From the NCBI GenBank assembly GCA_016872515.1, contig VGZR01000001.1, forward strand, positions 80,475 to 144,474: a DNA stretch of 64,000 nt, given 5' to 3'. Numbering within the stretch: the first letter of the stretch is position 1; every line of letters begins with the position of its first letter. The DNA comes from SAR202 cluster bacterium (GTDB lineage Bacteria; Chloroflexota; Dehalococcoidia; Lucifugimonadales; VGZR01). The notes below the pieces were generated by a model. The model had not been told where the DNA came from. It worked only from the letters and a program-made list of their open reading frames with translations, and searched no databases. This document shows, piece by piece, positions 2-47,501 of this stretch. The translations under genes were made by a program, and so were the position numbers.

Positions 2-1936
2 GCGGGAGCCATCCTGGGCTACCTCGCCGAGAAGCAGAAGACGGCCCTCGGCCAGGTCGCCTCCCTGCGCACCTACTCGACCGCCTCGTACATGACCCTT
101 GACCCGCAGACGCGCCGCAACTTGGAGCTGTTCCAGGGAGGCCGCTGGGGGGACGCCAAGGCGTCGCTGCTGTCCGTGCTCGACCACACCCGCACCTCCA
201 TGGGCGGGCGGCTGCTGCGGACGTGGCTCGGCCAGCCGCTGCTCGACATCGCAAGACTGACCCGGCGGCAGGACGCGGTCGAGTGGTGCCACCGGAGCAC
301 GCTCCGGCGCGGGCGCGTGGTGCAGGAGATGCAGCAGGTGGCCGACCTGGAGCGGCTAGTCAACCGCGTGCGCGGCTTCACCGCCACGCCGCGCGACCTC
401 GTCTCGCTGGCGAACGGCCTGGAGGCCGCCCCGCGCATCAAGGCCATCCTGTCCGAGGGCGAGGATGCTCTCAAGGTCGCCCATCTCGCCGGGGAGATGC
501 GGTCCCATGGCGAGGTTGTGCAGCTCGTCAAGACCGCCATCGTGGACGACCCGCCGGCCACCACCGCGGACGGCGGGGCGATCCGCAGGGGCTTCTCGCA
601 CGAGCTCGACGCCATGCGCGACGCCTCCCGCGACGCCCAGGACTACATCGCCGGGCTGGAGGCTTGCGAGCGGGAGGCCACCGGCATCAAGTCGCTCAAG
701 GTCGGCTATAACAAAGTTTTCGGCTACTACATCGAGGTCACCAAGCCTCACATGGCCCAGGTGCCGCCACACTACATCCGGCGGCAGACGCTGGTGGGCG
801 GCGAGCGGTACATCACGCCGGAGATGAAGGAGTACGAGTCGCGTGTCCTGACGGCGCAGGAACGGATGGCCGAGTTGGAGGCGTCGCTGTTCCGGCAGGT
901 GTGCCAACAGGTCGGTAACGAGGCCCCGGCGGTGCTGCGGACCGCTGCGGCCATCGCCGAGGTGGACGCGCTGGCCTCGCTGGGCGAGGTGGCCTCCCAT
1001 CACGGCTACGTGCGGCCCGCGCTGGACGAGGGCGATGCCATCGCCATCAAGCAGGGGCGCCATCCGGTCGTCGAGCGGATGCTGCCTTCGGGGAGCTTCG
1101 TCCCCAACGACGCGCGGCTGTCGAACCGCGACGGCCAGTTCGTTATCCTCACCGGCCCCAATATGGCGGGCAAGTCAACCTTCATCCGCCAGGTCGCTCT
1201 TATCGTACTCATGGCCCAGGTGGGCAGTTTCGTCCCCGCCGAGTCGGCGCACATCGGCCTGGTGGACCGTATCTTCACCCGCGTCGGGCTGCAGGACGAC
1301 CTGGCCGTGGGCCAGTCCACCTTCATGGTCGAGATGGTCGAAACTGCGGCCATCCTGAACCACGCGACGCCGCACTCCCTCATCGTGCTGGACGAGATCG
1401 GGCGCGGCACCAGCACGTACGACGGCCTGGCAATCGCCCGCGCGACCGCCGAGCACATCCACAACCACCCCCGCCTCGGCTGCAAGACCCTGTTCGCCAC
1501 CCACTACCACGAGCTGACGCGGCTGGCCGACGTACTGCCCCGCGTGCGGAACTGGAGCGTGGCGGTGGCCGAGGACAAGGGCGAGGTCGTGTTCCTGCGT
1601 CGCATCGTGCCCGGCGGCGCCGACCGCAGCTACGGCGTCCACGTCGCCCGTCTGGCCGGGCTGCCCCAGAGCGTCATCCACCGCGCCTGGGAGGTCTTGG
1701 CCGAGTTGGAGAACGGCGCCCGCCAGACCCCAAACCCTAAACCCCAACCCCCAGAGTCGAGGGGAAGGGGTGTGGGATTCGGGGGCCAGTCCCCGCCTCC
1801 CGACCAGCTGCCCCTGCTGCCCATCACGCACGCCGTCGTTGAGGAGCTGCTGTCGCTCGACGTCGCCGACATGACCCCCCTGGAGGCCATCACCAAGCTC
1901 TACGAGCTCCAGGAGAAGGCAAAAGGGGAGGGGTGA
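2..1936 (+). CDS. mutS: DNA mismatch repair protein MutS (C-terminal ~644 codons; 5' end outside window)
   Basis: ORF 92..1936 stays open in the same frame back to nt 2 (AGAILGYLAEKQKTALGQV...). MutS hallmarks are present: LTGPNMAGKSTFIRQ (Walker A), VLDEIGRGTSTYDG, FATHYHELT. Stop TGA is at 1934-1936. Confidence 0.95.
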   Translation, partial: AGAILGYLAEKQKTALGQVASLRTYSTASYMTLDPQTRRNLELFQGGRWGDAKASLLSVLDHTRTSMGGRLLRTWLGQPLLDIARLTRRQDAVEWCHRSTLRRGRVVQEMQQVADLERLVNRVRGFTATPRDLVSLANGLEAAPRIKAILSEGEDALKVAHLAGEMRSHGEVVQLVKTAIVDDPPATTADGGAIRRGFSHELDAMRDASRDAQDYIAGLEACEREATGIKSLKVGYNKVFGYYIEVTKPHMAQVPPHYIRRQTLVGGERYITPEMKEYESRVLTAQERMAELEASLFRQVCQQVGNEAPAVLRTAAAIAEVDALASLGEVASHHGYVRPALDEGDAIAIKQGRHPVVERMLPSGSFVPNDARLSNRDGQFVILTGPNMAGKSTFIRQVALIVLMAQVGSFVPAESAHIGLVDRIFTRVGLQDDLAVGQSTFMVEMVETAAILNHATPHSLIVLDEIGRGTSTYDGLAIARATAEHIHNHPRLGCKTLFATHYHELTRLADVLPRVRNWSVAVAEDKGEVVFLRRIVPGGADRSYGVHVARLAGLPQSVIHRAWEVLAELENGARQTPNPKPQPPESRGRGVGFGGQSPPPDQLPLLPITHAVVEELLSLDVADMTPLEAITKLYELQEKAKGEG

Positions 1937-3838: not shown

Positions 3839-4693
3839 ATGACCACCATCGAAGACATCATCCTCGACCACGACCGGCGCGGCGTCTCGCAGCTGCGACC
3901 CCATCTGCCCGCCGACTTCGCCGACCAAGCGGCCAAGGTCGTCCTCGACCACCCGGGCACGGCCGTCATCGTCGTCGGTTTCTACATCCTCTCGGCCAAG
4001 GCCACCGAGACCGACGGCCCTCCCGGCGCCATCGTCATCGGCAACGCCCTCCAGAAACTCGGCTACAAGGTCGCCTACGTGACCGACCGCTACACCGCGC
4101 CCGTCATGCGCGGCTGCGCGGGCAAGGGCGCCGAGGTCGTGGACTTCCCCATCACCGGCGTCGCCGAGAGCAAGGCGTTCACCAAGCAGCTCCTCGACCG
4201 GCTCAAGCCGTCGGTGCTCATCGCCATCGAACGGTGCGGCCTGACCGACGAAGGCGTGTACCGCAACATGCGCGGCCTGGAGATCACCGACTTCAACGCC
4301 AAGACCGACTACCTCTTCGAGGCGGGCATCCCCTCCGTCGGCATCGGCGACGGAGGCAACGAGATCGGCATGGGCAACCTCGCCGACATCATCCCCACGG
4401 TGCCGACCCTCGTGCGCAAGCCCACCCTCACCAAGGTCACCAAGCTCGTCATCGCCAGCGTCTCCAACTGGGGCGGTTACGGCCTGGCCGCGGCCATCTC
4501 GCTGCGCAAGAAGAAGAACCTGCTCATCTCGGTGAAGGAGGAACAGGACCTCCTCAAGCGCACGGTGAACCTGGGCGCGGTGGACGGCATGAGCGCCAAG
4601 CCCGAGTACAAGGCCGACGGCTTCACCATGGAGGAGAACACCGCCCTGTACCAGCGGCTCCACGACCTCCTGGCCGCCAAAGGCGTGAAGTAG
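3839..4693 (+). CDS. DUF4392 domain protein (partner domain of D-glutamate cyclase)
   Basis: 284-aa ORF lying 61 nt downstream of the DUF1445 gene. Motifs TETDGPPGA, IAIERCG, GIGDGGNEIGMGN and SVSNWGGYG match my memory of DUF4392. Confidence 0.75.
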   Translation: MTTIEDIILDHDRRGVSQLRPHLPADFADQAAKVVLDHPGTAVIVVGFYILSAKATETDGPPGAIVIGNALQKLGYKVAYVTDRYTAPVMRGCAGKGAEVVDFPITGVAESKAFTKQLLDRLKPSVLIAIERCGLTDEGVYRNMRGLEITDFNAKTDYLFEAGIPSVGIGDGGNEIGMGNLADIIPTVPTLVRKPTLTKVTKLVIASVSNWGGYGLAAAISLRKKKNLLISVKEEQDLLKRTVNLGAVDGMSAKPEYKADGFTMEENTALYQRLHDLLAAKGVK

Positions 4694-4702
4694 CGGGGAG
4701 CG

Positions 4703-5689
4703 ATGCTCTTCCTTCCCCCTCGAAGGGGGAAGGAAGACGCGGCGGCTTGGCCGGCGCGTAGGGATAGGGGTGAAGCATCAACGAAGAGAGGCATCACCCC
4801 TAGCCTTCAACGAGCTCAGGACAGGCTTTCGATCCTCCCCCTCAACGGGGAGGAGGAATGTCATGAGTCTTGCCCGCTGGCTGCCCTGGCTGCGGCGGTG
4901 CTGGCCGTCGCAGGCGTCATCATCCGGCAGGTGGGTGTGCTCGACCGCTACTTCATCTTCTTTCCCGAGCGCGAGGTTGCGGAAACCCCCTCAGACCGCG
5001 GCCTCGCCTTCGAGGATGTCTCCTTCACCGCCTCGGACGGGACGCGGCTGCATGGCTGGTACGTCCACGGCACGTCGGACGTGACCTGGCTGTGGTTCCA
5101 CGGCAATGCGGGCAACATCGCCGACTGGCTCGACGCGCTGGCCGCGCTGCACCGCAACCTCGGCGTCGCCATCTTCATCTTCGACTACCGCGGCTACGGC
5201 AAGAGCGAGGGCAGGCCGTCGGAGCGGGGGATGTACGTCGACGGCGAGGCGGCGCTGGTGTACCTGCGCTCGCGGCCCGATGTGAACGCGGACAAGGTTG
5301 TGCTCTACGGCCGGTCGCTGGGCTGCGCCGTCGCTGTCGAGATGGCCAGCCGCCACGGCGCGTATGCCCTAGTGCTGGAGTCGCCGTTCACGTCCATCAG
5401 GGCGATGGCGCGGCAGACGCTCCCCGTCCTTCCGGCGTGGCTGCTGGTGAAGAGCCGTTTCGTCTCGCTGTCGAAGATGTGTGGCATCACGGCGCCGTTG
5501 CTGGTCGTTCATCCGGAGAACGACGAGGTCGTGCCCATCGCGATGGGGTGGGAGGTGCATGAGGCGGCGGGAGGGCCGAGGCGCTTCTTCGTCGCCGAGG
5601 GCGCGCTGCACAACGACCAGCACCTGGCCGGCGGCGACCCCTACTTCGCGGCGCTGCGCGACTTCCTGGCGTCGGTTGGCGAGGGGTAA
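4703..5689 (+). CDS. Alpha/beta-fold hydrolase (serine hydrolase); start codon uncertain
   Basis: Has the HGNAGN oxyanion region, nucleophile elbow GRSLGC, and later ENDEVV and ALHND (Asp/His). The first ~50 codons of the ORF run through repeat copy B, so the true start is probably internal (e.g. GTG 4898). The only SD-preceded ATG (4863) is in another frame. Confidence 0.8.
   Translation: MLFLPPRRGKEDAAAWPARRDRGEASTKRGITPSLQRAQDRLSILPLNGEEECHESCPLAALAAAVLAVAGVIIRQVGVLDRYFIFFPEREVAETPSDRGLAFEDVSFTASDGTRLHGWYVHGTSDVTWLWFHGNAGNIADWLDALAALHRNLGVAIFIFDYRGYGKSEGRPSERGMYVDGEAALVYLRSRPDVNADKVVLYGRSLGCAVAVEMASRHGAYALVLESPFTSIRAMARQTLPVLPAWLLVKSRFVSLSKMCGITAPLLVVHPENDEVVPIAMGWEVHEAAGGPRRFFVAEGALHNDQHLAGGDPYFAALRDFLASVGEG
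4708..4854. repeat. Type-1 mosaic hairpin repeat, copy B (X hairpin, 40-nt linker, long stem, Y hairpin)
   Basis: X is a 12-bp stem CTTCCTTCCCCC/GGGGGAAGGAAG at 4708-4736. The linker is 4737-4776. GGGGTGA 4767-4773 pairs with TCACCCC 4794-4800. Y stem TCCTCCCC/GGGGAGGA lies at 4833-4854. Confidence 0.85.
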
Positions 5690-20445: not shown

Positions 20446-20482
20446 CGGGCTATAATAGACACTAGCCGCGCTCAGGCACCGT

Positions 20483-20566
20483 GGGGAAGTGGCGGAATGG
20501 CAGACGCGCAAGACTTAGGATCTTGTGCCGTAAGGCGTGGGAGTTCAAATCTCCCCTTCCCCACCA
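20483..20566 (+). tRNA. tRNA-Leu (anticodon UAG), type II with long variable arm, CCA encoded
   Basis: Hand-folded. Acceptor GGGGAAG/CTTCCCC, D stem GCG/CGC, anticodon stem CAAGA/TCTTG with loop CTTAGGA, variable arm GCC-GTAA-GGC, T arm GGGAG-TTCAAAT-CTCCC, discriminator A plus CCA. Confidence 0.93.
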
Positions 20567-43624: not shown

Positions 43625-44506
43625 GTGGTCGTTCAGCGAAGGTTGCCAGAATGGCTAAAGGTCCGGGCGCCTGGCGGGCCAAACTACATCGAGCTTCAAG
43701 GCCTCCTGCGCGGCGCCAGCCTCCACACCGTCTGCGAGGAGGCCCGCTGCCCCAACATCGGTACCTGTTGGGAGCGCCGCACCGCCACTTTCATGATCCT
43801 GGGCGACATCTGCACCCGCGCCTGTGCCTACTGCGCTGTCACCAGCGGCAGGCCCACTGGCCTCGACCTCAATGAGCCTGTCCGCCTCGCCGAGACCGTC
43901 GAACGGATGGGGCTGCGCTACGCCGTAATCACCTCCGTCAACCGCGACGACCTTCCCGACGGCGGCGCCTTCATCTTCGCCCAGTGCATCCACCAGGTCA
44001 GGAAGCGCCTGCCGGACTGCAAGGTCGAGGTGCTTATACCCGACTTCTGCGGCAACTGGGATGCTCTTACGCGGTTGATGGACGCCAAACCCGACACGCT
44101 GAACCACAACATCGAGACGGTGCGCCGCGTCTTCCACCGCGTGCGGCGCAAGGGCGACTACGACCGTTCCCTCGAACTCCTCGCCCGCGCCAAGGCGATG
44201 GCCCCCGGCGGCGTCACCAAGTCCGGCATGATGGTGGGGCTGGGAGAGACATGGGACGAGATTCTTCAGACCATGCGCGACCTGCGGTCGGTGGACTGCG
44301 ACCTGCTCACCATCGGCCAGTACCTGCGGCCGTCCGAGCGCCACATCGCCCTGGCCCGCTGGTACACGCCCCAGGAGTTCGACGAATTGCGCCGCGAGGG
44401 CGACGCCCTGGGCTTCCGCCACGTCGCCTCCGGCCCACTCGTCCGAAGCTCCTACCACGCCGACGAACAGCACGCCGCCGCGATGGCCGTCACTGTGGGG
44501 GCGTAG
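43625..44506 (+). CDS. lipA: Lipoyl synthase
   Basis: 293 aa, GTG start. CEEARCPNIGTCW (auxiliary cluster) and radical-SAM CTRACAYC. Confidence 0.95.
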   Translation: MVVQRRLPEWLKVRAPGGPNYIELQGLLRGASLHTVCEEARCPNIGTCWERRTATFMILGDICTRACAYCAVTSGRPTGLDLNEPVRLAETVERMGLRYAVITSVNRDDLPDGGAFIFAQCIHQVRKRLPDCKVEVLIPDFCGNWDALTRLMDAKPDTLNHNIETVRRVFHRVRRKGDYDRSLELLARAKAMAPGGVTKSGMMVGLGETWDEILQTMRDLRSVDCDLLTIGQYLRPSERHIALARWYTPQEFDELRREGDALGFRHVASGPLVRSSYHADEQHAAAMAVTVGA

Positions 44507-44522
44507 CTCGTCTCGTTACCGA

Positions 44523-44531
44523 TGCTATAAT
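44523..44531 (+). promoter_or_regulatory. Extended -10 promoter (TGCTATAAT) 9 nt upstream of the first mini-ORF
   Basis: TGnTATAAT at 44523-44531 and ATG at 44541. No Shine-Dalgarno lies in between, which suggests a leaderless or near-leaderless transcript. Confidence 0.45.
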
Positions 44532-44540
44532 CACGCCAGT

Positions 44541-44660
44541 ATGCCTAGCGAGACCGGCAAGCGTTATGTGTGTACCAAGTGCGGCTCCGAGTTCGTGGCG
44601 ACGCGAGGCGGCGACGGCACTCTGACCTGCTGCGACCAGCCCGTCCAGCCTAAGCCCTAG
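44541..44660 (+). CDS. Desulforedoxin-like mini-protein (39 aa, not in ORF track)
   Basis: My translation is MPSETGKRYVCTKCGSEFVATRGGDGTLTCCDQPVQPKP. It fits the desulforedoxin / desulfoferrodoxin-N pattern Y-x-C-x-x-C-G ... G-x-G-x-L-x-C-C. Confidence 0.7.
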   Translation: MPSETGKRYVCTKCGSEFVATRGGDGTLTCCDQPVQPKP

Positions 44661-44682
44661 CCCCACCTTCACGCTGCATCGC

Positions 44683-44826
44683 ATGGCCAACCAACTCGGA
44701 CGACGCTACCGCTGCGAGACCTGTGGCGCCACCGTCTTGTGCACCAAGGCCGGCACCGGCACCGTTAAGTGCCACGGCGCCGACATGGTCGTCCAGCAGC
44801 CCCGCCGCCTCCCTTCCTCCGACTAG
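44683..44826 (+). CDS. Desulforedoxin-like mini-protein paralogue with C-C changed to C-H (47 aa, not in ORF track)
   Basis: My translation is MANQLGRRYRCETCGATVLCTKAGTGTVKCHGADMVVQQPRRLPSSD. Same scaffold as the upstream mini-ORF. The fourth ligand position reads His. Confidence 0.6.
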   Translation: MANQLGRRYRCETCGATVLCTKAGTGTVKCHGADMVVQQPRRLPSSD

Positions 44827-46019
44827 CGCGATGTGAGTACCTCGCGGACGCGGTGCGTCAGCGCCTGAGCGCGAGCATCGTTCAGGTTTAGTGGATTCAC
44901 GATCAAGGTGTGCTGCCGAAGCAGCCGTTCCTGGACGAATATCCCCGGGTTGCCCTTTTTCATCTCCTGCGAGACCTGAAAGGCCGAGCGGCCCAATGCC
45001 TTCGTGTCCAGCACCAGGTGCATCACCGGCGGCCCCTCTTCTGGGGTGATGACCCGCGGCTCCACCGGCAGCCCGCTCAGCCCGTCCGCGATGTACTCAA
45101 GGTGCCGCCTCATCTGCCGGTAGTCCGGCGCATACTTCCCCTGCGCGAATAGCTCCAGCCCCGTCAGCAGCCCCACGACCTCCTCCTTGGAGACCTTGAA
45201 CCCCCGCCCGATGCCGTGGCGCGGGATGCCTGCGATGCTGCTCTTGGGGATGAACTCCTCGGGTGGCTCCCAGATGTCGAAGAACTCGTCCATGTCCAGG
45301 TTCTGCAACGCTGCCGAGGCGATGTACTCCCGCCTGCCGCACAGGATGCCGCTCGACTGCGGCCCGCGTATCGCCTTGCCACCAGAGAAAGCCACCAGGT
45401 CGGCGCCAGCCTCAATGAAGCGGCGCAGGTTCCCGATGGGCGGGAGCTGCCCCGCTGCGTCCACCAGCACCGGCAGCCCGTGCCGGTGCGCCACGCGGAC
45501 CACATCCTCGATGGGCGGCACGCCTCCTGCGGTCACCGCGAAGGCGATGCCCGCGGTCTTGTCCGTGATGGCCGCCTCGTACTCCCATGCCTCCGTCCGC
45601 CGCACGCCCGCATCCGCGAGCAGCTCGTTCATACCGACTTCCACCAGCTTCGCGCCCGCCAATCGGATGGCGTGATCGTACCCGCTCCGGTGCTCCCGCG
45701 AGATGATGAACTCGTTCTTCATGCCCGCCGTGTCGGGCAGCCGCTCCATCTTCCCCAGGTCGAGTCCGGCCAGGATTGCAGCTGTCCCCAGCGACAGCCC
45801 GGCGGACGCTCCCGCGGTCACGTAGCCCGCCTCGGCGCTTGTAGCCTTGGCGATGGCGCGCGACGCTGCCGCCTGCAGCTCCGTCATCGAGACCGAGTGC
45901 TGTGCTGCCTCCACCATCGCCTGCACGATTTCAGGCACCATCAGCGCCCCGCCGACACGCGTGGACGCGCCCGACACGTTGATGATGGTCCTGACCCCGA
46001 ACTTCTCGTAGATGCTCAC
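44823..46019 (-). CDS. SelA/DgaE-like fold-type-I PLP-dependent enzyme
   Basis: 398 aa. GTG start lies 7 nt after GGGAGG. N-terminus VRTIINVSGASTRVGG and PLP-lysine context FSGGKAIRGPQSSG resemble the L-seryl-tRNA(Sec) selenium transferase-related family. Confidence 0.7.
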   Translation of the reverse strand: MSIYEKFGVRTIINVSGASTRVGGALMVPEIVQAMVEAAQHSVSMTELQAAASRAIAKATSAEAGYVTAGASAGLSLGTAAILAGLDLGKMERLPDTAGMKNEFIISREHRSGYDHAIRLAGAKLVEVGMNELLADAGVRRTEAWEYEAAITDKTAGIAFAVTAGGVPPIEDVVRVAHRHGLPVLVDAAGQLPPIGNLRRFIEAGADLVAFSGGKAIRGPQSSGILCGRREYIASAALQNLDMDEFFDIWEPPEEFIPKSSIAGIPRHGIGRGFKVSKEEVVGLLTGLELFAQGKYAPDYRQMRRHLEYIADGLSGLPVEPRVITPEEGPPVMHLVLDTKALGRSAFQVSQEMKKGNPGIFVQERLLRQHTLIVNPLNLNDARAQALTHRVREVLTSR

Positions 46020-46102: not shown

Positions 46103-46969
46103 CTAGCGCCCGAAAGCGGTCAGGACGCGCCGGGCGGCGTCGTAGTCCCGTACCCCGCCCTTGAGGATGGGCGGAACGAGGTAGATGTAGGAGAGACCTT
46201 GATCAGCGAAACGGCGGACGAGTTCAACGGCGATGTCGCTTCCCGCGCGGCCCGAAGCCATCCCCTTTATCACCCATCGGGGCACGTTCCCGAATGTGAT
46301 GCTCTCCGGCGCCATGACCTGTACGCCGCAGAAGAGCGGCTGACGCAAAGCCTGGCCGTGCGCCTCTTGGTAGCACTCCCAAAACGCCTTGACCGTTGAT
46401 GGCTCGAACACCGCCTGCAACAGGAAGAAACTTGCCCCGGCCTTCGCCTTGCGGTGGGCCAAGACGACCTCGCGTTCCATATCGCGGTTCAGGTCGATCG
46501 TCGCGCCAACTGCGAAATTGGTGGGCGAGCGGAGCTTGACGCCCCTGAAATCCACGCCCTGGTTCATCGCGGTGATCGAGGCGATGAGTTCCGTAGGTGT
46601 GAAGTCGTCCACCGCTCTCACCCGCTCCAGGTCTTTTTCGGTGAAAGCGTCACCCTTCACCACGACGGCGTTCTGGAGGCCGAGGAGGGCGGCGCCGAGG
46701 AGCAGGCTCTGTGTCGCCACCTTGTTCATGTCCCTGGTGGCGACGGTGAACAGCGTATCGCGGCCGATGTTGGCCTTGATCCAGTGAGCCGTCAGGACCG
46801 AGTTGACCCTGACTGACCTGCCCGGGTTGTACGCCACCGAGATGAAGTCCGCGTTCAGCTCGCGCGCATCCTGCAGCAGGGCAGGGTCGCCGCCCCTCGG
46901 AGGCGAGAAGTCGCAGATGAAGACGTTGCTGTCGCCCGCTGCGGCGCACCGCTCAGGGACTGTCGCCAT
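46103..46969 (-). CDS. Methylenetetrahydrofolate reductase (MetF)-like protein
   Basis: Start at ATG 46969 after GGAGG; the ORF-track extension to 47179 overlaps the upstream gene. FICDFSPPRG, ADFISVAYNPG, FTVATRD and LQNAVVVKGD parallel MTHFR motifs. Confidence 0.72.
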   Translation of the reverse strand: MATVPERCAAAGDSNVFICDFSPPRGGDPALLQDARELNADFISVAYNPGRSVRVNSVLTAHWIKANIGRDTLFTVATRDMNKVATQSLLLGAALLGLQNAVVVKGDAFTEKDLERVRAVDDFTPTELIASITAMNQGVDFRGVKLRSPTNFAVGATIDLNRDMEREVVLAHRKAKAGASFFLLQAVFEPSTVKAFWECYQEAHGQALRQPLFCGVQVMAPESITFGNVPRWVIKGMASGRAGSDIAVELVRRFADQGLSYIYLVPPILKGGVRDYDAARRVLTAFGR

Positions 46970-47018
46970 CAGGCCTCCGGACCCGGAGGTGTCGGCACTT
47001 AGGGCTGGCTGGACTGGC

Positions 47019-47501
47019 TTACTTCCAGCCCCAGGCCCCGTTGCGCGAAGGCAGCAGAGAAACCCTGTGGCCCTCCAGGCACTTGTAACGCTCCTCGCGG
47101 TTCTCGCGGCGCTTGCCCGACAGGGAGGACTGCTCCATCTGGCCGGTGCAGAACGGGCACTTGATGAGGTATCCCACACGCGTCCGCACGCGGATGACCT
47201 TCAGCGTGATGAGCTTGTTGCGCAGGCTCGCCGCCTCGCCCATGTAGCGCAGCACATAGATGGTGCCTGCGCTCACGATGTTCACGCCGTTCTTGTGCGC
47301 GATAGCCGGCACATGCCTGGGGTCTTCGTAGCCGCACATGGCGCAGGTGTAGGAACCGTACTGGTTGTACAGCCGTCCCTGGCACCGGGGGCACAGGTCC
47401 TGCCGGATGGGGATCGGAATCCTGTTCAGCGGGGGTGCGCTCGACGGCTGCGTCGCGGCGGGAATCCCAGGCGTGAAATTCGTGGTGGCGGGGGTGACCA
47501 T
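47019..47501 (-). CDS. Hypothetical double Zn-ribbon protein
   Basis: 160 aa with a strong RBS (AGAGGAGGAATC-ATG). CPRC-x12-CAMC lies after a Pro-rich N-terminus. A second ribbon CPFC...C-LEGH lies near the C-terminus. The first ribbon is paralogous to ORF 60853..61050. Confidence 0.6.
   Translation of the reverse strand: MVTPATTNFTPGIPAATQPSSAPPLNRIPIPIRQDLCPRCQGRLYNQYGSYTCAMCGYEDPRHVPAIAHKNGVNIVSAGTIYVLRYMGEAASLRNKLITLKVIRVRTRVGYLIKCPFCTGQMEQSSLSGKRRENREERYKCLEGHRVSLLPSRNGAWGWK

Follow-up and report, generated by a model that had tools for sequence, protein, structure and literature searches.

A conserved two-gene unit of desulforedoxin-fold mini-proteins in SAR202 Chloroflexota, with a putatively leaderless promoter layout

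A 64-kb stretch of SAR202 DNA (the window, i.e. all 64,000 nucleotides analysed) contains a two-gene operon that has its own consensus -10 promoter and encodes two paralogous mini-proteins of the desulforedoxin (Dx) fold. We propose that the products of the two genes, ORF1 and ORF2, associate as a heterodimer, bind metal and dock onto a partner via the C-terminal tail of ORF2, and that the operon has lost its leader in this lineage. We put the probability of this reading as a whole at about 0.6. The elements of the locus, in window coordinates, are:

43625-44506, + strand: lipA (lipoyl synthase), upstream neighbour of the pair; NF004019, 424 bits
44523-44531, + strand: extended -10 element TGCTATAAT with its TATAAT at 44526-44531; a -35 hexamer is not recognisable
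44538-44541, + strand: putative transcription start zone; purine A44538 is 7 nt past the -10 box and the ATG is at 44541, for a predicted 5' UTR of 0-3 nt
44541-44660, + strand: ORF1, 39 aa, MPSETGKRYVCTKCGSEFVATRGGDGTLTCCDQPVQPKP; GenBank MBM3947748.1
44661-44682, no strand: intercistronic spacer, 22 nt, ccccaccttcacgctgcatcgc, without Shine-Dalgarno motif
44683-44826, + strand: ORF2, 47 aa, MANQLGRRYRCETCGATVLCTKAGTGTVKCHGADMVVQQPRRLPSSD; GenBank MBM3947749.1
44770-44775, + strand: Cys30 and His31 codons of ORF2 (TGC 44770-44772, CAC 44773-44775), matching in position the neighbouring iron ligands Cys28-Cys29 of desulforedoxin
44800-44823, + strand: C-terminal tail of ORF2, P40-R-R-L-P-S-S-D47, absent from classical desulforedoxin
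44823-46019, - strand: convergent gene for a SelA/DgaE-like PLP enzyme; TIGR01437 188 bits (below cut-off), PF03841 37.7 bits

The locus is base-for-base the same in four other assemblies and is therefore not an assembly artefact. The coordinates bear out the 4-nt overlap with the 3' end of the convergent SelA-like gene that had been reported in a preliminary description of this DNA, the overlap covering the ORF2 stop codon. The same description had presented both genes as unlisted and as likely to be missed by automated annotation. The first statement is true of its own first-stage track, which held only ORFs of at least 60 aa, but not of GenBank; the second was mistaken, as NCBI PGAP called both ORFs in the SAR202 MAG (MBM3947748.1 as 'desulfoferrodoxin', MBM3947749.1 as 'hypothetical protein') although the Prodigal-type calls in ENA, JGI and Logan did pass over ORF1 here. 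No Rfam match to a structured RNA or riboswitch was found across 44300-45000 at E values up to 1. Elsewhere in the window, an ARAGORN call of tRNA-Asn(ATT) at 1105-1198 was discarded for want of Rfam support.

Profile searches and structural modelling show that ORF1 and ORF2 have the Dx fold, the three-dimensional fold being a prediction made for ORF2. The HMM search that the preliminary description had proposed gave scores above the gathering cut-off of PF06397 Desulfoferrod_N (23 bits) for both ORFs, with 32.2 bits (E 8e-8) for ORF1 and 26.9 bits (E 3.6e-6) for ORF2; both matches are still significant given roughly 800 small ORFs in the window, a number extrapolated from 69 per 5.5 kb. The scores against TIGR00319 (desulf_FeS4 domain; ORF1 19.4, ORF2 23.7 bits) lie below its curated cut-off of 36.05, and TIGR00320 (desulfoferrodoxin), whose match is confined to the N-domain, gives 19.5 bits where its cut-off is 146.9. 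ORF1 has the full C-x-x-C...C-C ligand set, with Cys11, Cys14, Cys30 and Cys31 invariant across the ORF1 alignment, and its proposed placement on the desulforedoxin/desulfoferrodoxin N-terminal scaffold is upheld. The ORF1-type family consists of 47 clusters of 38-39 aa that carry the NCBI name 'desulfoferrodoxin'. We rejected true membership of the desulfoferrodoxin (Dfx)/superoxide reductase (SOR) family for these 39- and 47-aa proteins, as neither has the SOR catalytic domain (centre II), and because of this absence the NCBI name of ORF1 is a misnomer. One search match, P0158, is a true Dfx, and its N-domain is close to the ORF2 type.

ORF2 aligns without gaps to Desulfovibrio gigas desulforedoxin (PDB 1CFW/1DXG) with an E value of 5.7e-5. 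The AF2 model of ORF2 (pLDDT 83) has 1DXG_A as its top Foldseek match, with a probability of 1.00, a target TM of 0.91, an rmsd of 0.7 Å and 46% identity over 35 columns. By hhalign (probability 99.2%) the two proteins, which share only about 40% identity, are paralogues.

Both ORFs are real genes under purifying selection. The comparison of conservation and Ka/Ks that had also been suggested yielded dN/dS values of 0.2-0.55 for ORF1 against four relatives, with changes mostly at third codon positions, and of 0.06-0.24 for ORF2; synonymous sites are near saturation in these comparisons, and the frames are intact in orthologues. That the frames are very short, lack a Shine-Dalgarno (SD) sequence and were in the case of ORF1 skipped by some gene callers might be taken to indicate chance open frames or degraded pseudogenes between genes. 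The probability of this is negligible and we discarded it, given dN/dS well below 1 with saturated synonymous sites, intact frames in hundreds of orthologues, Pfam scores above the gathering threshold for both ORFs and a confident ORF2 structure model that matches Dx. The earlier view of the two as genuine desulforedoxin-fold genes is thus supported by conservation, selection, Pfam and the structure model alike.

The pair, which had been thought unusual, proves to be conserved as a unit of two genes. Of 80 Dehalococcoidia species genomes, 76 have an ORF1-type gene 10-128 nt ahead of one of the ORF2 type (22 nt in the window), same-strand pairing of the two types recurs at 61 of 68 metagenome loci of another branch, and the tandem pair is also present in Acidimicrobiia, Syntrophales, Deltaproteobacteria and Acidobacteria. 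It retains its own promoter across differing contexts and orientations. At about 10% of loci (L070 and L092 among them) the ORF2-type gene stands without an ORF1-type partner, so the ORF2 type can exist alone. Fusions were also observed: two matched stretches, an ORF1-like domain followed by a tailed ORF2-like domain, occur in 38 of the 150 best representatives, and for one ORF1-ORF2 fusion an uninterrupted reading frame was confirmed on a contig of 3.5 Mb. An AF2 model of a fusion, with only 7 sequences behind it, reaches a pTM of 0.61 despite a disordered linker, and its strands are longer than those in the monomer model.

With regard to the promoter, TGNTATAAT occurs once in the 64 kb, counting both strands (0.08 expected), and TGCTATAAT ends 9 nt before the ORF1 ATG. 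TATAAT is found three times in the 64 kb, one copy being located 27 nt upstream of tRNA-Leu. A consensus scanner found no -35/-10 pair at ORF1, only the extended -10. Among the relatives, an exact TATAAT precedes the orthologous ORF1 at 59 of 81 loci, usually 36 nt from the start; as judged by sequence comparison, the TATAAT box of the pair is an ancestral, conserved promoter element. The TG extension accompanies it at four of these 59 loci and is not conserved. Of the extended -10 box described earlier, the perfect element and its distance from the ATG therefore stand, as does the TATAAT as a conserved feature, while the TG extension does not extend to the family. Applying the usual spacing between -10 box and transcription start would place the start zone at 44538-44541. 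There is no GGAG-type SD upstream of ORF1, in agreement with the preliminary description, or of ORF2, and strong SD sequences occur at many other genes of the window. The relatives have leaders of 26-65 nt, with an SD before the ORF1-type gene at 77 of 81 loci and, in most leadered cases, a TTG or GTG start codon; the window is the sole outlier among the 81, with its 9-nt spacing, no SD and an ATG start. Of 84 orthologous loci, 81 likewise have an SD-like motif ahead of ORF2; the three that lack it include the window.

In the published description (Zheng et al. 2011, PMC3160421), leaderless genes carry a TANNNT box some 10-12 bp ahead of their start codon. In the window, the -10 box lies within about 10 nt of the AUG with no SD, which is the layout taken as the sequence criterion for leaderless mRNA (PMC3160421). 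Because the 9-nt spacing without SD contrasts with the leadered, SD-bearing relatives, a leaderless reading is reasonable, and a leaderless or near-leaderless mRNA is plausible in the window lineage. We suggest that an ancestral leader of about 30 nt was deleted together with its SD in this SAR202 lineage, so that transcription would be expected to begin 0-3 nt before the ATG; the SD-less ORF2 could then be translated by re-initiation 22 nt past the ORF1 stop. A terminator scan found none between lipA and the pair, hence read-through transcripts with long leaders may coexist with the leaderless one. The missing terminator could also mean that the mRNA is not leaderless at all, with transcription mainly by read-through from lipA or a start elsewhere, SD-independent internal initiation at ORF1 and a TATAAT at 44526 that is a relic of the ancestral promoter; the absence of a -35 hexamer points the same way, as does the 9-nt spacing, which is a little longer than expected if transcription began right at the A of the ATG. 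We regard this as rather doubtful. The TATAAT is perfectly retained, the lineage has gained a TG extension able to compensate for the missing -35, and TATAAT also stands ahead of tRNA-Leu in the window; furthermore, the start codon is ATG, as opposed to TTG or GTG in most leadered relatives, and the geometry fits the published leaderless signature (PMC3160421).

ORF2 belongs to a large tail-bearing subfamily, delimited here as 'DxB' by GKRY-x-C-x-x-C, (L/V)xTKAG-x-G, C-(C/H/D/N) and, closing the protein, (K/R)-x-L-P-S-(S/A)-D, all of which are present in ORF2. Its same-strand upstream partner, the ORF1 type, is 38-40 aa long, has no tail and is designated 'DxA'. The ORF2 type amounts to 686 clusters at 50% identity and 1,227 at 90% identity, and its close branch alone covers at least 285 species genomes. 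The tail closes 118 of the 149 top ORF2-type representatives. Within these 118, D47 is conserved in 116, P44 and S45 in 99 each and L43 in 87, so that D47 is kept more often than either Cys11 or Cys14 (104 each). The AF2 model has a pLDDT of about 66 over the tail, and modelling suggests a flexible peptide. Database labels for the family are inconsistent, ranging from 'desulfoferrodoxin', 'desulforedoxin' and 'hypothetical' to 'RpoP' or 'ribosomal protein S27E'. A literature search on desulforedoxin-like proteins yielded no account of a family with such a tail or pairing; the conserved C-terminal tail of the ORF2 type is undescribed so far.

The ligand set of ORF2 is C11-x-x-C14...C30-H31, plus an extra Cys20, and departs from the C-C requirement of Dx. 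The gapless alignment to 1CFW/1DXG places His31 opposite Dx Cys29, confirming the replacement of the second adjacent Cys by His. The notion that this variant is peculiar to the locus does not hold, as His is common in the family, at about a third to a half: position 31 is C in 62, H in 37, D in 11 and N in 5 of 118 representatives (clusters at 50% identity), and His31 is present in 48 of the 94 closest ORF2-type clusters at 90% identity. At least 10 switches of the position-31 state are needed on the ORF2-family tree. Since this position is restricted almost entirely to C, H, D and N (115 of 118), residue 31 probably remains a metal ligand. Position 20 behaves as part of the hydrophobic core, with Cys alternating with Val, Ile and Ala. 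Cys20 was considered as a substitute fourth ligand in the His variants and rejected: Val20 is present in 16 of 35 His31 proteins versus 8 of 48 Cys31 proteins, the opposite of compensation. Each subunit would bind a single Fe or Zn ion, the site being Cys4 in ORF1 and Cys3His in ORF2; Fe and Zn are indistinguishable from sequence alone. Metal binding is not universally needed in the family, because members P0076, P0103 and P0198 have lost either the two cysteines of CxxC or every cysteine.

The genomic context of the pair varies. lipA adjoins it at 50 of 84 loci and is convergent with it at 48 of these 50. The window pair does directly follow lipA, as had been pointed out, but the link this seemed to imply is weak, and we discarded co-transcription or functional coupling with lipA given the prevailing convergent orientation and the separate promoter of the pair. 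The SelA/DgaE-like gene is found beside the pair at only 5 of 84 loci. In a survey of 56 loci, 27 have an AMP-binding gene directly upstream of the pair on the same strand, CoA_transf_3 lies downstream of the pair at 15 and ECH genes lie upstream at 14. CoA enzymes are also encoded next to the pair in Acidobacteria, Deltaproteobacteria and Acidimicrobiia and at six Dehalococcoidia loci; the window's own clade is without this association and has lipA, an MTHFR-like gene and ETF genes as neighbours. The association may in part reflect chance or inherited synteny, the genomes being rich in such genes.

Classical Dx is a homodimer (PDB 1DXG), with subunits of roughly 36 aa and redox-active high-spin iron. 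The natural fusions and the obligate Dx dimer together suggest an ORF1:ORF2 heterodimer, in which one copy of each product would form a 1:1 equivalent of the Dx homodimer. ORF1 and ORF2 might instead each form a Dx-like homodimer with a separate role, the tandem arrangement being an old duplication under shared regulation. The precedent of Dx itself, the low identity between the two proteins and the occurrence of solitary ORF2-type genes all agree with separate homodimers. Nevertheless, we consider them unlikely, since pairing is kept at about 90% of loci across several phyla, natural fusions are many and follow the order of the genes, and the two domains pack together in the fusion model.

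As to function, the conserved tail could dock the proposed heterodimer onto a partner enzyme, for which the gene neighbours seen in other phyla suggest acyl-CoA ligases and CoA-transferases. A related reading, possible though on balance doubtful, dispenses with redox iron altogether: the pair would be structural, zinc-ribbon-like adaptor or accessory subunits containing Zn or, in some lineages, no metal. The Dx scaffold would only maintain their shape, while the GKRY/TKAG surface and the LPSSD tail would bind a partner or regulate it, an acyl-CoA synthetase or a CoA-transferase for instance. Conservation of the tail and of GKRY/TKAG does at least equal that of the ligands, and the tail is kept in members missing some or all Cys ligands (P0076, P0103, P0125, P0198). 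Replacement by His, Asp or Asn is characteristic of Zn sites, and AMP-binding, CoA_transf_3 and CoA_trans genes recur as same-strand neighbours. Yet the closest solved relatives (Dx and Dfx centre I) are iron proteins, ORF1 keeps the exact FeCys4 ligand set, and the window's own clade has no conserved partner gene. A much more speculative extension, to which we attach very little likelihood, is that the ORF2 type, held by the ORF1 type, acts as an adaptor/carrier and not as an electron carrier. Its free ...L-P-S-S-D end would then be engaged by an acyl-CoA synthetase or CoA-transferase, either non-covalently or covalently via the terminal Asp carboxylates, in a LysW-like protein-handle system. 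If true, this would constitute a protein-handle system for acyl-CoA metabolism not described before, with C/H/D/N variation at the fourth ligand tuning a structural or regulatory metal site.

For the window itself these results are mostly corrective: the genes are real, but they are not rare and are already annotated, and the Cys-to-His change occurs often in the family. Only the near-leaderless promoter layout is specific to the window lineage. The Dx-fold two-gene unit is very widespread, occurring in Chloroflexota (including abundant ocean and lake SAR202), Actinobacteria, Acidobacteria and Deltaproteobacteria. Its natural C/H/D/N series at one ligand position of a 36-residue metal site offers a variant set for bioinorganic study, and could show the tuning effect of the fourth ligand on a rubredoxin-type centre. 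The window also provides a clean natural case in which leader loss appears to have turned an SD-dependent leadered operon into a leaderless layout, with sister lineages keeping the leader; one of them, L014, has a leader of 26 nt, an SD and a TTG start.

Several known systems can be compared with the pair. Rubredoxins are similarly small, hold one metal on four Cys from two knuckles and resemble the pair in a possible electron-carrier role, but they are monomers with two C-x-x-C knuckles, whereas the second knuckle of the pair is C-C or C-H. No match of ORF1 or ORF2 to Pfam rubredoxin was reported at E values up to 1, and PDB rubredoxins match at E of about 0.14 through the first knuckle only. 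LysW-type amino-group carriers provide a functional analogy only, sharing a metal-knuckle domain of roughly 50 aa, a flexible tail and a conserved acidic C-terminal residue. Homology to LysW was rejected, 5K2M_F ranking 44 with a probability of 0.06 in the fold search of the ORF2 model, and the neighbourhood surveys revealed no recurrent cluster with an ATP-grasp ligase (LysX/RimK-type) next to the pair. The desulfoferrodoxins, or 2Fe-superoxide reductases (1DFX, 2JI1; TIGR00320), have a homologous N-terminal centre I domain, but ORF1 and ORF2 stop at 39 and 47 residues without the SOR catalytic domain.

The closest system is D. gigas Dx (1DXG/1CFW; PF06397), with which the pair shares the fold, the size class, the C-x-x-C-G knuckle spacing and the adjacent second ligand pair, ORF1 having all four Cys. 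Dx is encoded by a single gene and forms a homodimer with two FeCys4 sites, whereas here two diverged paralogues occupy one operon and are naturally fused in places, which leads us to expect a heterodimer rather than the Dx homodimer. ORF2 further differs from Dx by His in place of the fourth Cys, a conserved 10-residue C-terminal tail and the extra core Cys20, and the host is an aerobic-type SAR202 Chloroflexota, no sulfate reducer. The promoter layout resembles that of leaderless bacterial mRNAs (Zheng et al. 2011, PMC3160421) in its consensus -10 box just upstream of the ATG and its lack of an SD. The box in the window, however, starts 15 bp upstream, from which a leader of 0-3 nt and not exactly none would be expected. 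Unlike the leaderless mRNAs of that study, the layout in the window appears to be a lineage-specific, derived state of a leadered, SD-dependent operon, in which the SD of the second cistron is gone as well.

Six genes of the window, in and around the pair of short reading frames, frame the analysis:

43625-44506: lipA, upstream of the ORF1/ORF2 pair
44541-44660, + strand: ORF1, 39 aa
44683-44826, + strand: ORF2, 47 aa
44823-46019, - strand: gene for a SelA/DgaE-like PLP enzyme, convergent, with a 4-nt overlap with ORF2
46103-47179, - strand: a divergent MTHFR-like gene (PF02219, just 46 bits)
47019-47501, - strand: gene for a 160-aa Cys-rich protein that carries two zinc-ribbon-like motifs and matches no Pfam family above threshold

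The coordinates assigned to both frames in the preliminary description are exact. Four other assemblies agree with the window at each of the 390 bases around the pair, ORF2 homologues with 77-87% identity occur in SAR202/Chloroflexota genomes, and an ORF1 homologue lies directly upstream of the ORF2 homologue at every locus fetched. The Ka/Ks comparison with relatives that had been proposed was made by the Nei-Gojobori method, setting the window against four loci of increasing distance. It gave dN/dS values of 0.2-0.55 for ORF1 and 0.06-0.24 for ORF2, with synonymous sites near saturation and differences clustering at third codon positions. Rfam holds no family matching the region. ORF1 and ORF2 are genuine genes, and their being chance reading frames is excluded. 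Elsewhere in the window, a 94-nt 'tRNA-Asn' (anticodon ATT) called by ARAGORN at 1105-1198 (-) is probably a false positive, because an Rfam search at E up to 1 detects neither a tRNA nor any other family there.

In the profile search proposed for the desulforedoxin/Desulfoferrodoxin_N model, both proteins score above the 23-bit Pfam gathering score of PF06397 (desulfoferrodoxin N-terminal/desulforedoxin domain), ORF1 with 32.2 and ORF2 with 26.9 bits. Both fall under the cut-off of the stricter NCBIfam model TIGR00319, and the NCBIfam search found a superoxide reductase domain in neither. Among proteins of solved structure, ORF2 is closest in sequence to Desulfovibrio gigas desulforedoxin (Dx) (E 5.7e-5, ungapped over all 36 residues); ORF1 matches Dx and the desulfoferrodoxins more weakly. 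With 107 sequences as input, AlphaFold2 predicts ORF2 at a pLDDT of 83 (core 86-92, last residues ~66). In a structural search this model matches 1DXG_A best (probability 1.00, target-normalised TM 0.91, rmsd 0.7 Å, 46% identity), and N-domains of 2Fe-superoxide reductases come next. ORF1 and ORF2 themselves are paralogues (40% identity over residues 1-30, profile-profile probability 99.2%).

It had been expected that automated annotation would miss the pair. This was not supported, as GenBank holds both exact proteins from a SAR202 cluster MAG under consecutive accessions: ORF1 as 'desulfoferrodoxin' (MBM3947748.1) and ORF2 as 'hypothetical protein FJ312_00630' (MBM3947749.1). The former, NCBI's routine name for ORF1-type proteins of 38-39 aa, is a misnomer, since they lack the catalytic domain. 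At the window locus ORF1 is passed over by the Prodigal-type calls of ENA, JGI and Logan. At the orthologous loci L001-L008 the same pipelines absorb its orthologue into a spurious ORF of 85 aa (about 4680-4937), which begins at a GTG within the overlap with the stop codon of the MTHFR-like gene, while the start that is conserved is a TTG after AAGAGG. Database names of the 39-47 aa family members are inconsistent and partly wrong, and include 'desulfoferrodoxin' (without the SOR domain), 'desulforedoxin', 'hypothetical protein', 'ribosomal protein S27E', 'DNA-directed RNA polymerase subunit RPC12/RpoP', 'ribosomal protein L37AE/L43A' and 'tRNA G26 N,N-dimethylase Trm1'.

The ORF2 family comprises 686 cluster representatives at 50% identity (exhaustive profile search, E up to 1e-3) and 1,227 clusters at 90% identity (word-indexed search), with named members in Chloroflexota, Acidimicrobiia, Syntrophales, Deltaproteobacteria and Acidobacteria. 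Scanning one genome per GTDB species revealed a close relative in 285 genomes, the best 80 of which are all Dehalococcoidia or Chloroflexota. In 76 of these 80 the ORF2-type gene is preceded, at a distance of 10-128 nt, by an ORF1-type gene; the four misses include one at a contig edge and two true absences of the ORF1-type gene. The same arrangement recurs in 61 of 68 metagenome loci with enough upstream sequence, an independent sample from a different branch of the family, and the pair is also found in Syntrophales, Deltaproteobacteria, Acidobacteria and, uncalled, Acidimicrobiia. The pair is hence not the rarity it was first taken for. It is the unit, and moves as a cassette: most SAR202 relatives have the order MTHFR-like gene, ORF1, ORF2 and convergent lipA, L013 carries the cassette between thiL and an IscA-like gene, and in the window and L014 it is inverted to a position after lipA, with a SelA-like gene inserted. 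The SelA/DgaE-like gene adjoins the pair in just 5 of 84 loci (L014 and L095-L098), and in the window separates it from the MTHFR-like gene. Because this insertion coincides with the inversion relative to lipA, the two constitute a lineage-specific rearrangement.

The reported Cys-to-His swap in ORF2 was confirmed, His31 standing opposite Dx Cys29 in the ungapped alignment. Across 118 tail-bearing representatives the equivalent position holds Cys 62 times, His 37 times, Asp 11 times and Asn 5 times, and in the closest 94 clusters of 47 aa residues 30-31 read CH 48, CC 40 and CD 6 times. When 81 paired loci (H 45, C 29, D 7) are placed on a neighbour-joining tree, position 31 needs at least 10 state changes, and CH or HC also occurs in a few ORF1-type proteins. 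Judged from these alignments, the swap is a frequent, labile state of the ORF2 family. Nearly all alternatives at position 31 are metal-ligating residues, a pattern that favours exchange of the ligand over loss of the putative metal site. The extra Cys20 of ORF2 was ruled out as a compensating ligand: it alternates with Val, Ile and Ala across the family, and Val20 is commoner alongside His31 than alongside Cys31; it is therefore a core residue.

What truly sets the ORF2 type apart from classical Dx is an invariant tail at the extreme C-terminus, (K/R)-x-L-P-S-(S/A)-D. Asp47 is kept in 116 of the 118 tail-bearing representatives, Cys11 and Cys14 in 104 each, and some family members have partly or wholly lost the cysteines with the tail kept. 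The low AlphaFold2 confidence of the tail is as expected for a flexible docking peptide.

In the clade of the window the pair has housekeeping neighbours. lipA adjoins it in 50 of 84 loci (convergent in 48 of those 50), and the MTHFR-like gene, the commonest upstream same-strand neighbour in SAR202 relatives, takes that position in 33, with the gene for the 160-aa Cys-rich protein on its far side in 25 of the 84; other recurring neighbours are RlmD-like, Maf, TatA/C and ETF genes. Other branches of the family have the pair embedded among acyl-CoA genes on the same strand. Across 56 metagenome loci, an AMP-binding acyl-CoA synthetase gene is immediately upstream in 27 and enoyl-CoA hydratase genes further upstream in 14, with a family III CoA-transferase downstream in 15 and NMO in 9. 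CoA_trans alpha and beta genes flank the pair in Acidobacteria and succinyl-CoA ligase genes in one deltaproteobacterium; an AMP-binding gene follows it in Acidimicrobiia, and a 797-aa CoA-transferase gene at six Dehalococcoidia loci. Outside SAR202 such clusters (L099, L101, L102, L105, L110, L111 and L112-L191) contain genes for AMP-binding acyl-CoA synthetases, enoyl-CoA hydratases, CoA-transferases of families I and III, succinyl-CoA ligase and NMO. A functional association with acyl-CoA metabolism is possible, a lead and not proof, since such genes are abundant there and the pattern may be partly inherited synteny.

Upstream of the pair, TGCTATAAT occupies 44523-44531 and ends 9 nt before the ORF1 ATG; TGNTATAAT occurs once in the window (0.08 expected by chance). 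Sequence scanning bore out the description of ORF1 as lacking a Shine-Dalgarno (SD) motif, and none precedes ORF2; strong SD motifs occur at many genes of this 65%-GC genome, lipA and the SelA-like gene among them. Of 81 loci, 59 have an exact TATAAT ahead of ORF1 (with the TG extension in just 4 of the 59), at 26-65 nt from the start, most commonly 36 nt, except in the window (9 nt) and L046 (100 nt). ORF1 has an SD in 77 of the 81 loci and starts with TTG in 49, GTG in 17 and ATG in 14; the window alone combines a box at 9 nt, no SD and ATG. L014, the closest relative to share the gene arrangement, still starts ORF1 with TTG and keeps an AGGAG motif and a leader of 26 nt. Before ORF2, an SD-like motif is present at 81 of 84 loci, the window being among the three exceptions. 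The 64-kb window contains just three TATAAT hexamers, and the one at 20451-20456 precedes tRNA-Leu(TAG) (20483-20566) by 27 nt, which supports TATAAT as a functional -10 box in this organism. Leaderless genes are marked by a TANNNT box ~10-12 bp upstream of the start codon, of TAtaaT type in Chloroflexi (PMC3160421). We conclude from the locus comparison that the TATAAT promoter is ancestral and that the window lineage lost the leader, most likely leaving a predicted 5' UTR of 0-3 nt, with transcription probably starting at A44538. ORF2 would then be translated by re-initiation, 22 nt past the ORF1 stop. Read-through from lipA is possible, as a scan found no terminator between lipA and the pair; that the transcript is not leaderless is unlikely.

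Dx is an obligate dimer with a hydrophobic core formed between subunits (1DXG). Two matched stretches are found in 38 of the 150 best representatives, where a linker joins an ORF1-like to an ORF2-like domain within one polypeptide; on a 3.5-Mb contig, one of these fusions is encoded without interruption in a single frame. A fusion model with both ligand sets kept reaches a pTM of 0.61 despite its disordered linker, and its strands are longer than those of the monomer model. From the conserved pairing, the fusions, this model and the obligate dimerisation of Dx, we infer that ORF1 and ORF2 form a heterodimer; separate homodimers of each are improbable. The best reading is a heterodimeric Dx-fold metal protein with a docking tail, whose two putative sites would be Cys4 and Cys3His, and which in the window would be expressed from a leaderless bicistronic mRNA. 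Its main rival, which is less likely, takes the scaffold as an adaptor for CoA-handling enzymes in which Zn would be structural or a metal optional; in its favour are the acyl-CoA neighbourhoods, the tailed proteins lacking cysteines and the His, Asp and Asn alternatives at position 31.

A third architecture of ~110 aa joins a ~60-residue unannotated N-terminal domain (..RPDNFRW.IGG..Y.RD.LI.E.E.GS.., no Pfam match) to an ORF2-type domain with an LPSSD tail (P0083, P0087, P0110, P0118, P0120, P0146, P0172, P0179, P0187, P0191, P0197 and P0200).

In the literature searched, no paper describes the paired or fused architecture, the tail, the labile fourth ligand or the host range of this Dx family. 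The closest known entity is D. gigas Dx, from which the family differs in its hetero-pair and fusion architecture, its conserved tail, its labile fourth ligand and its host range.
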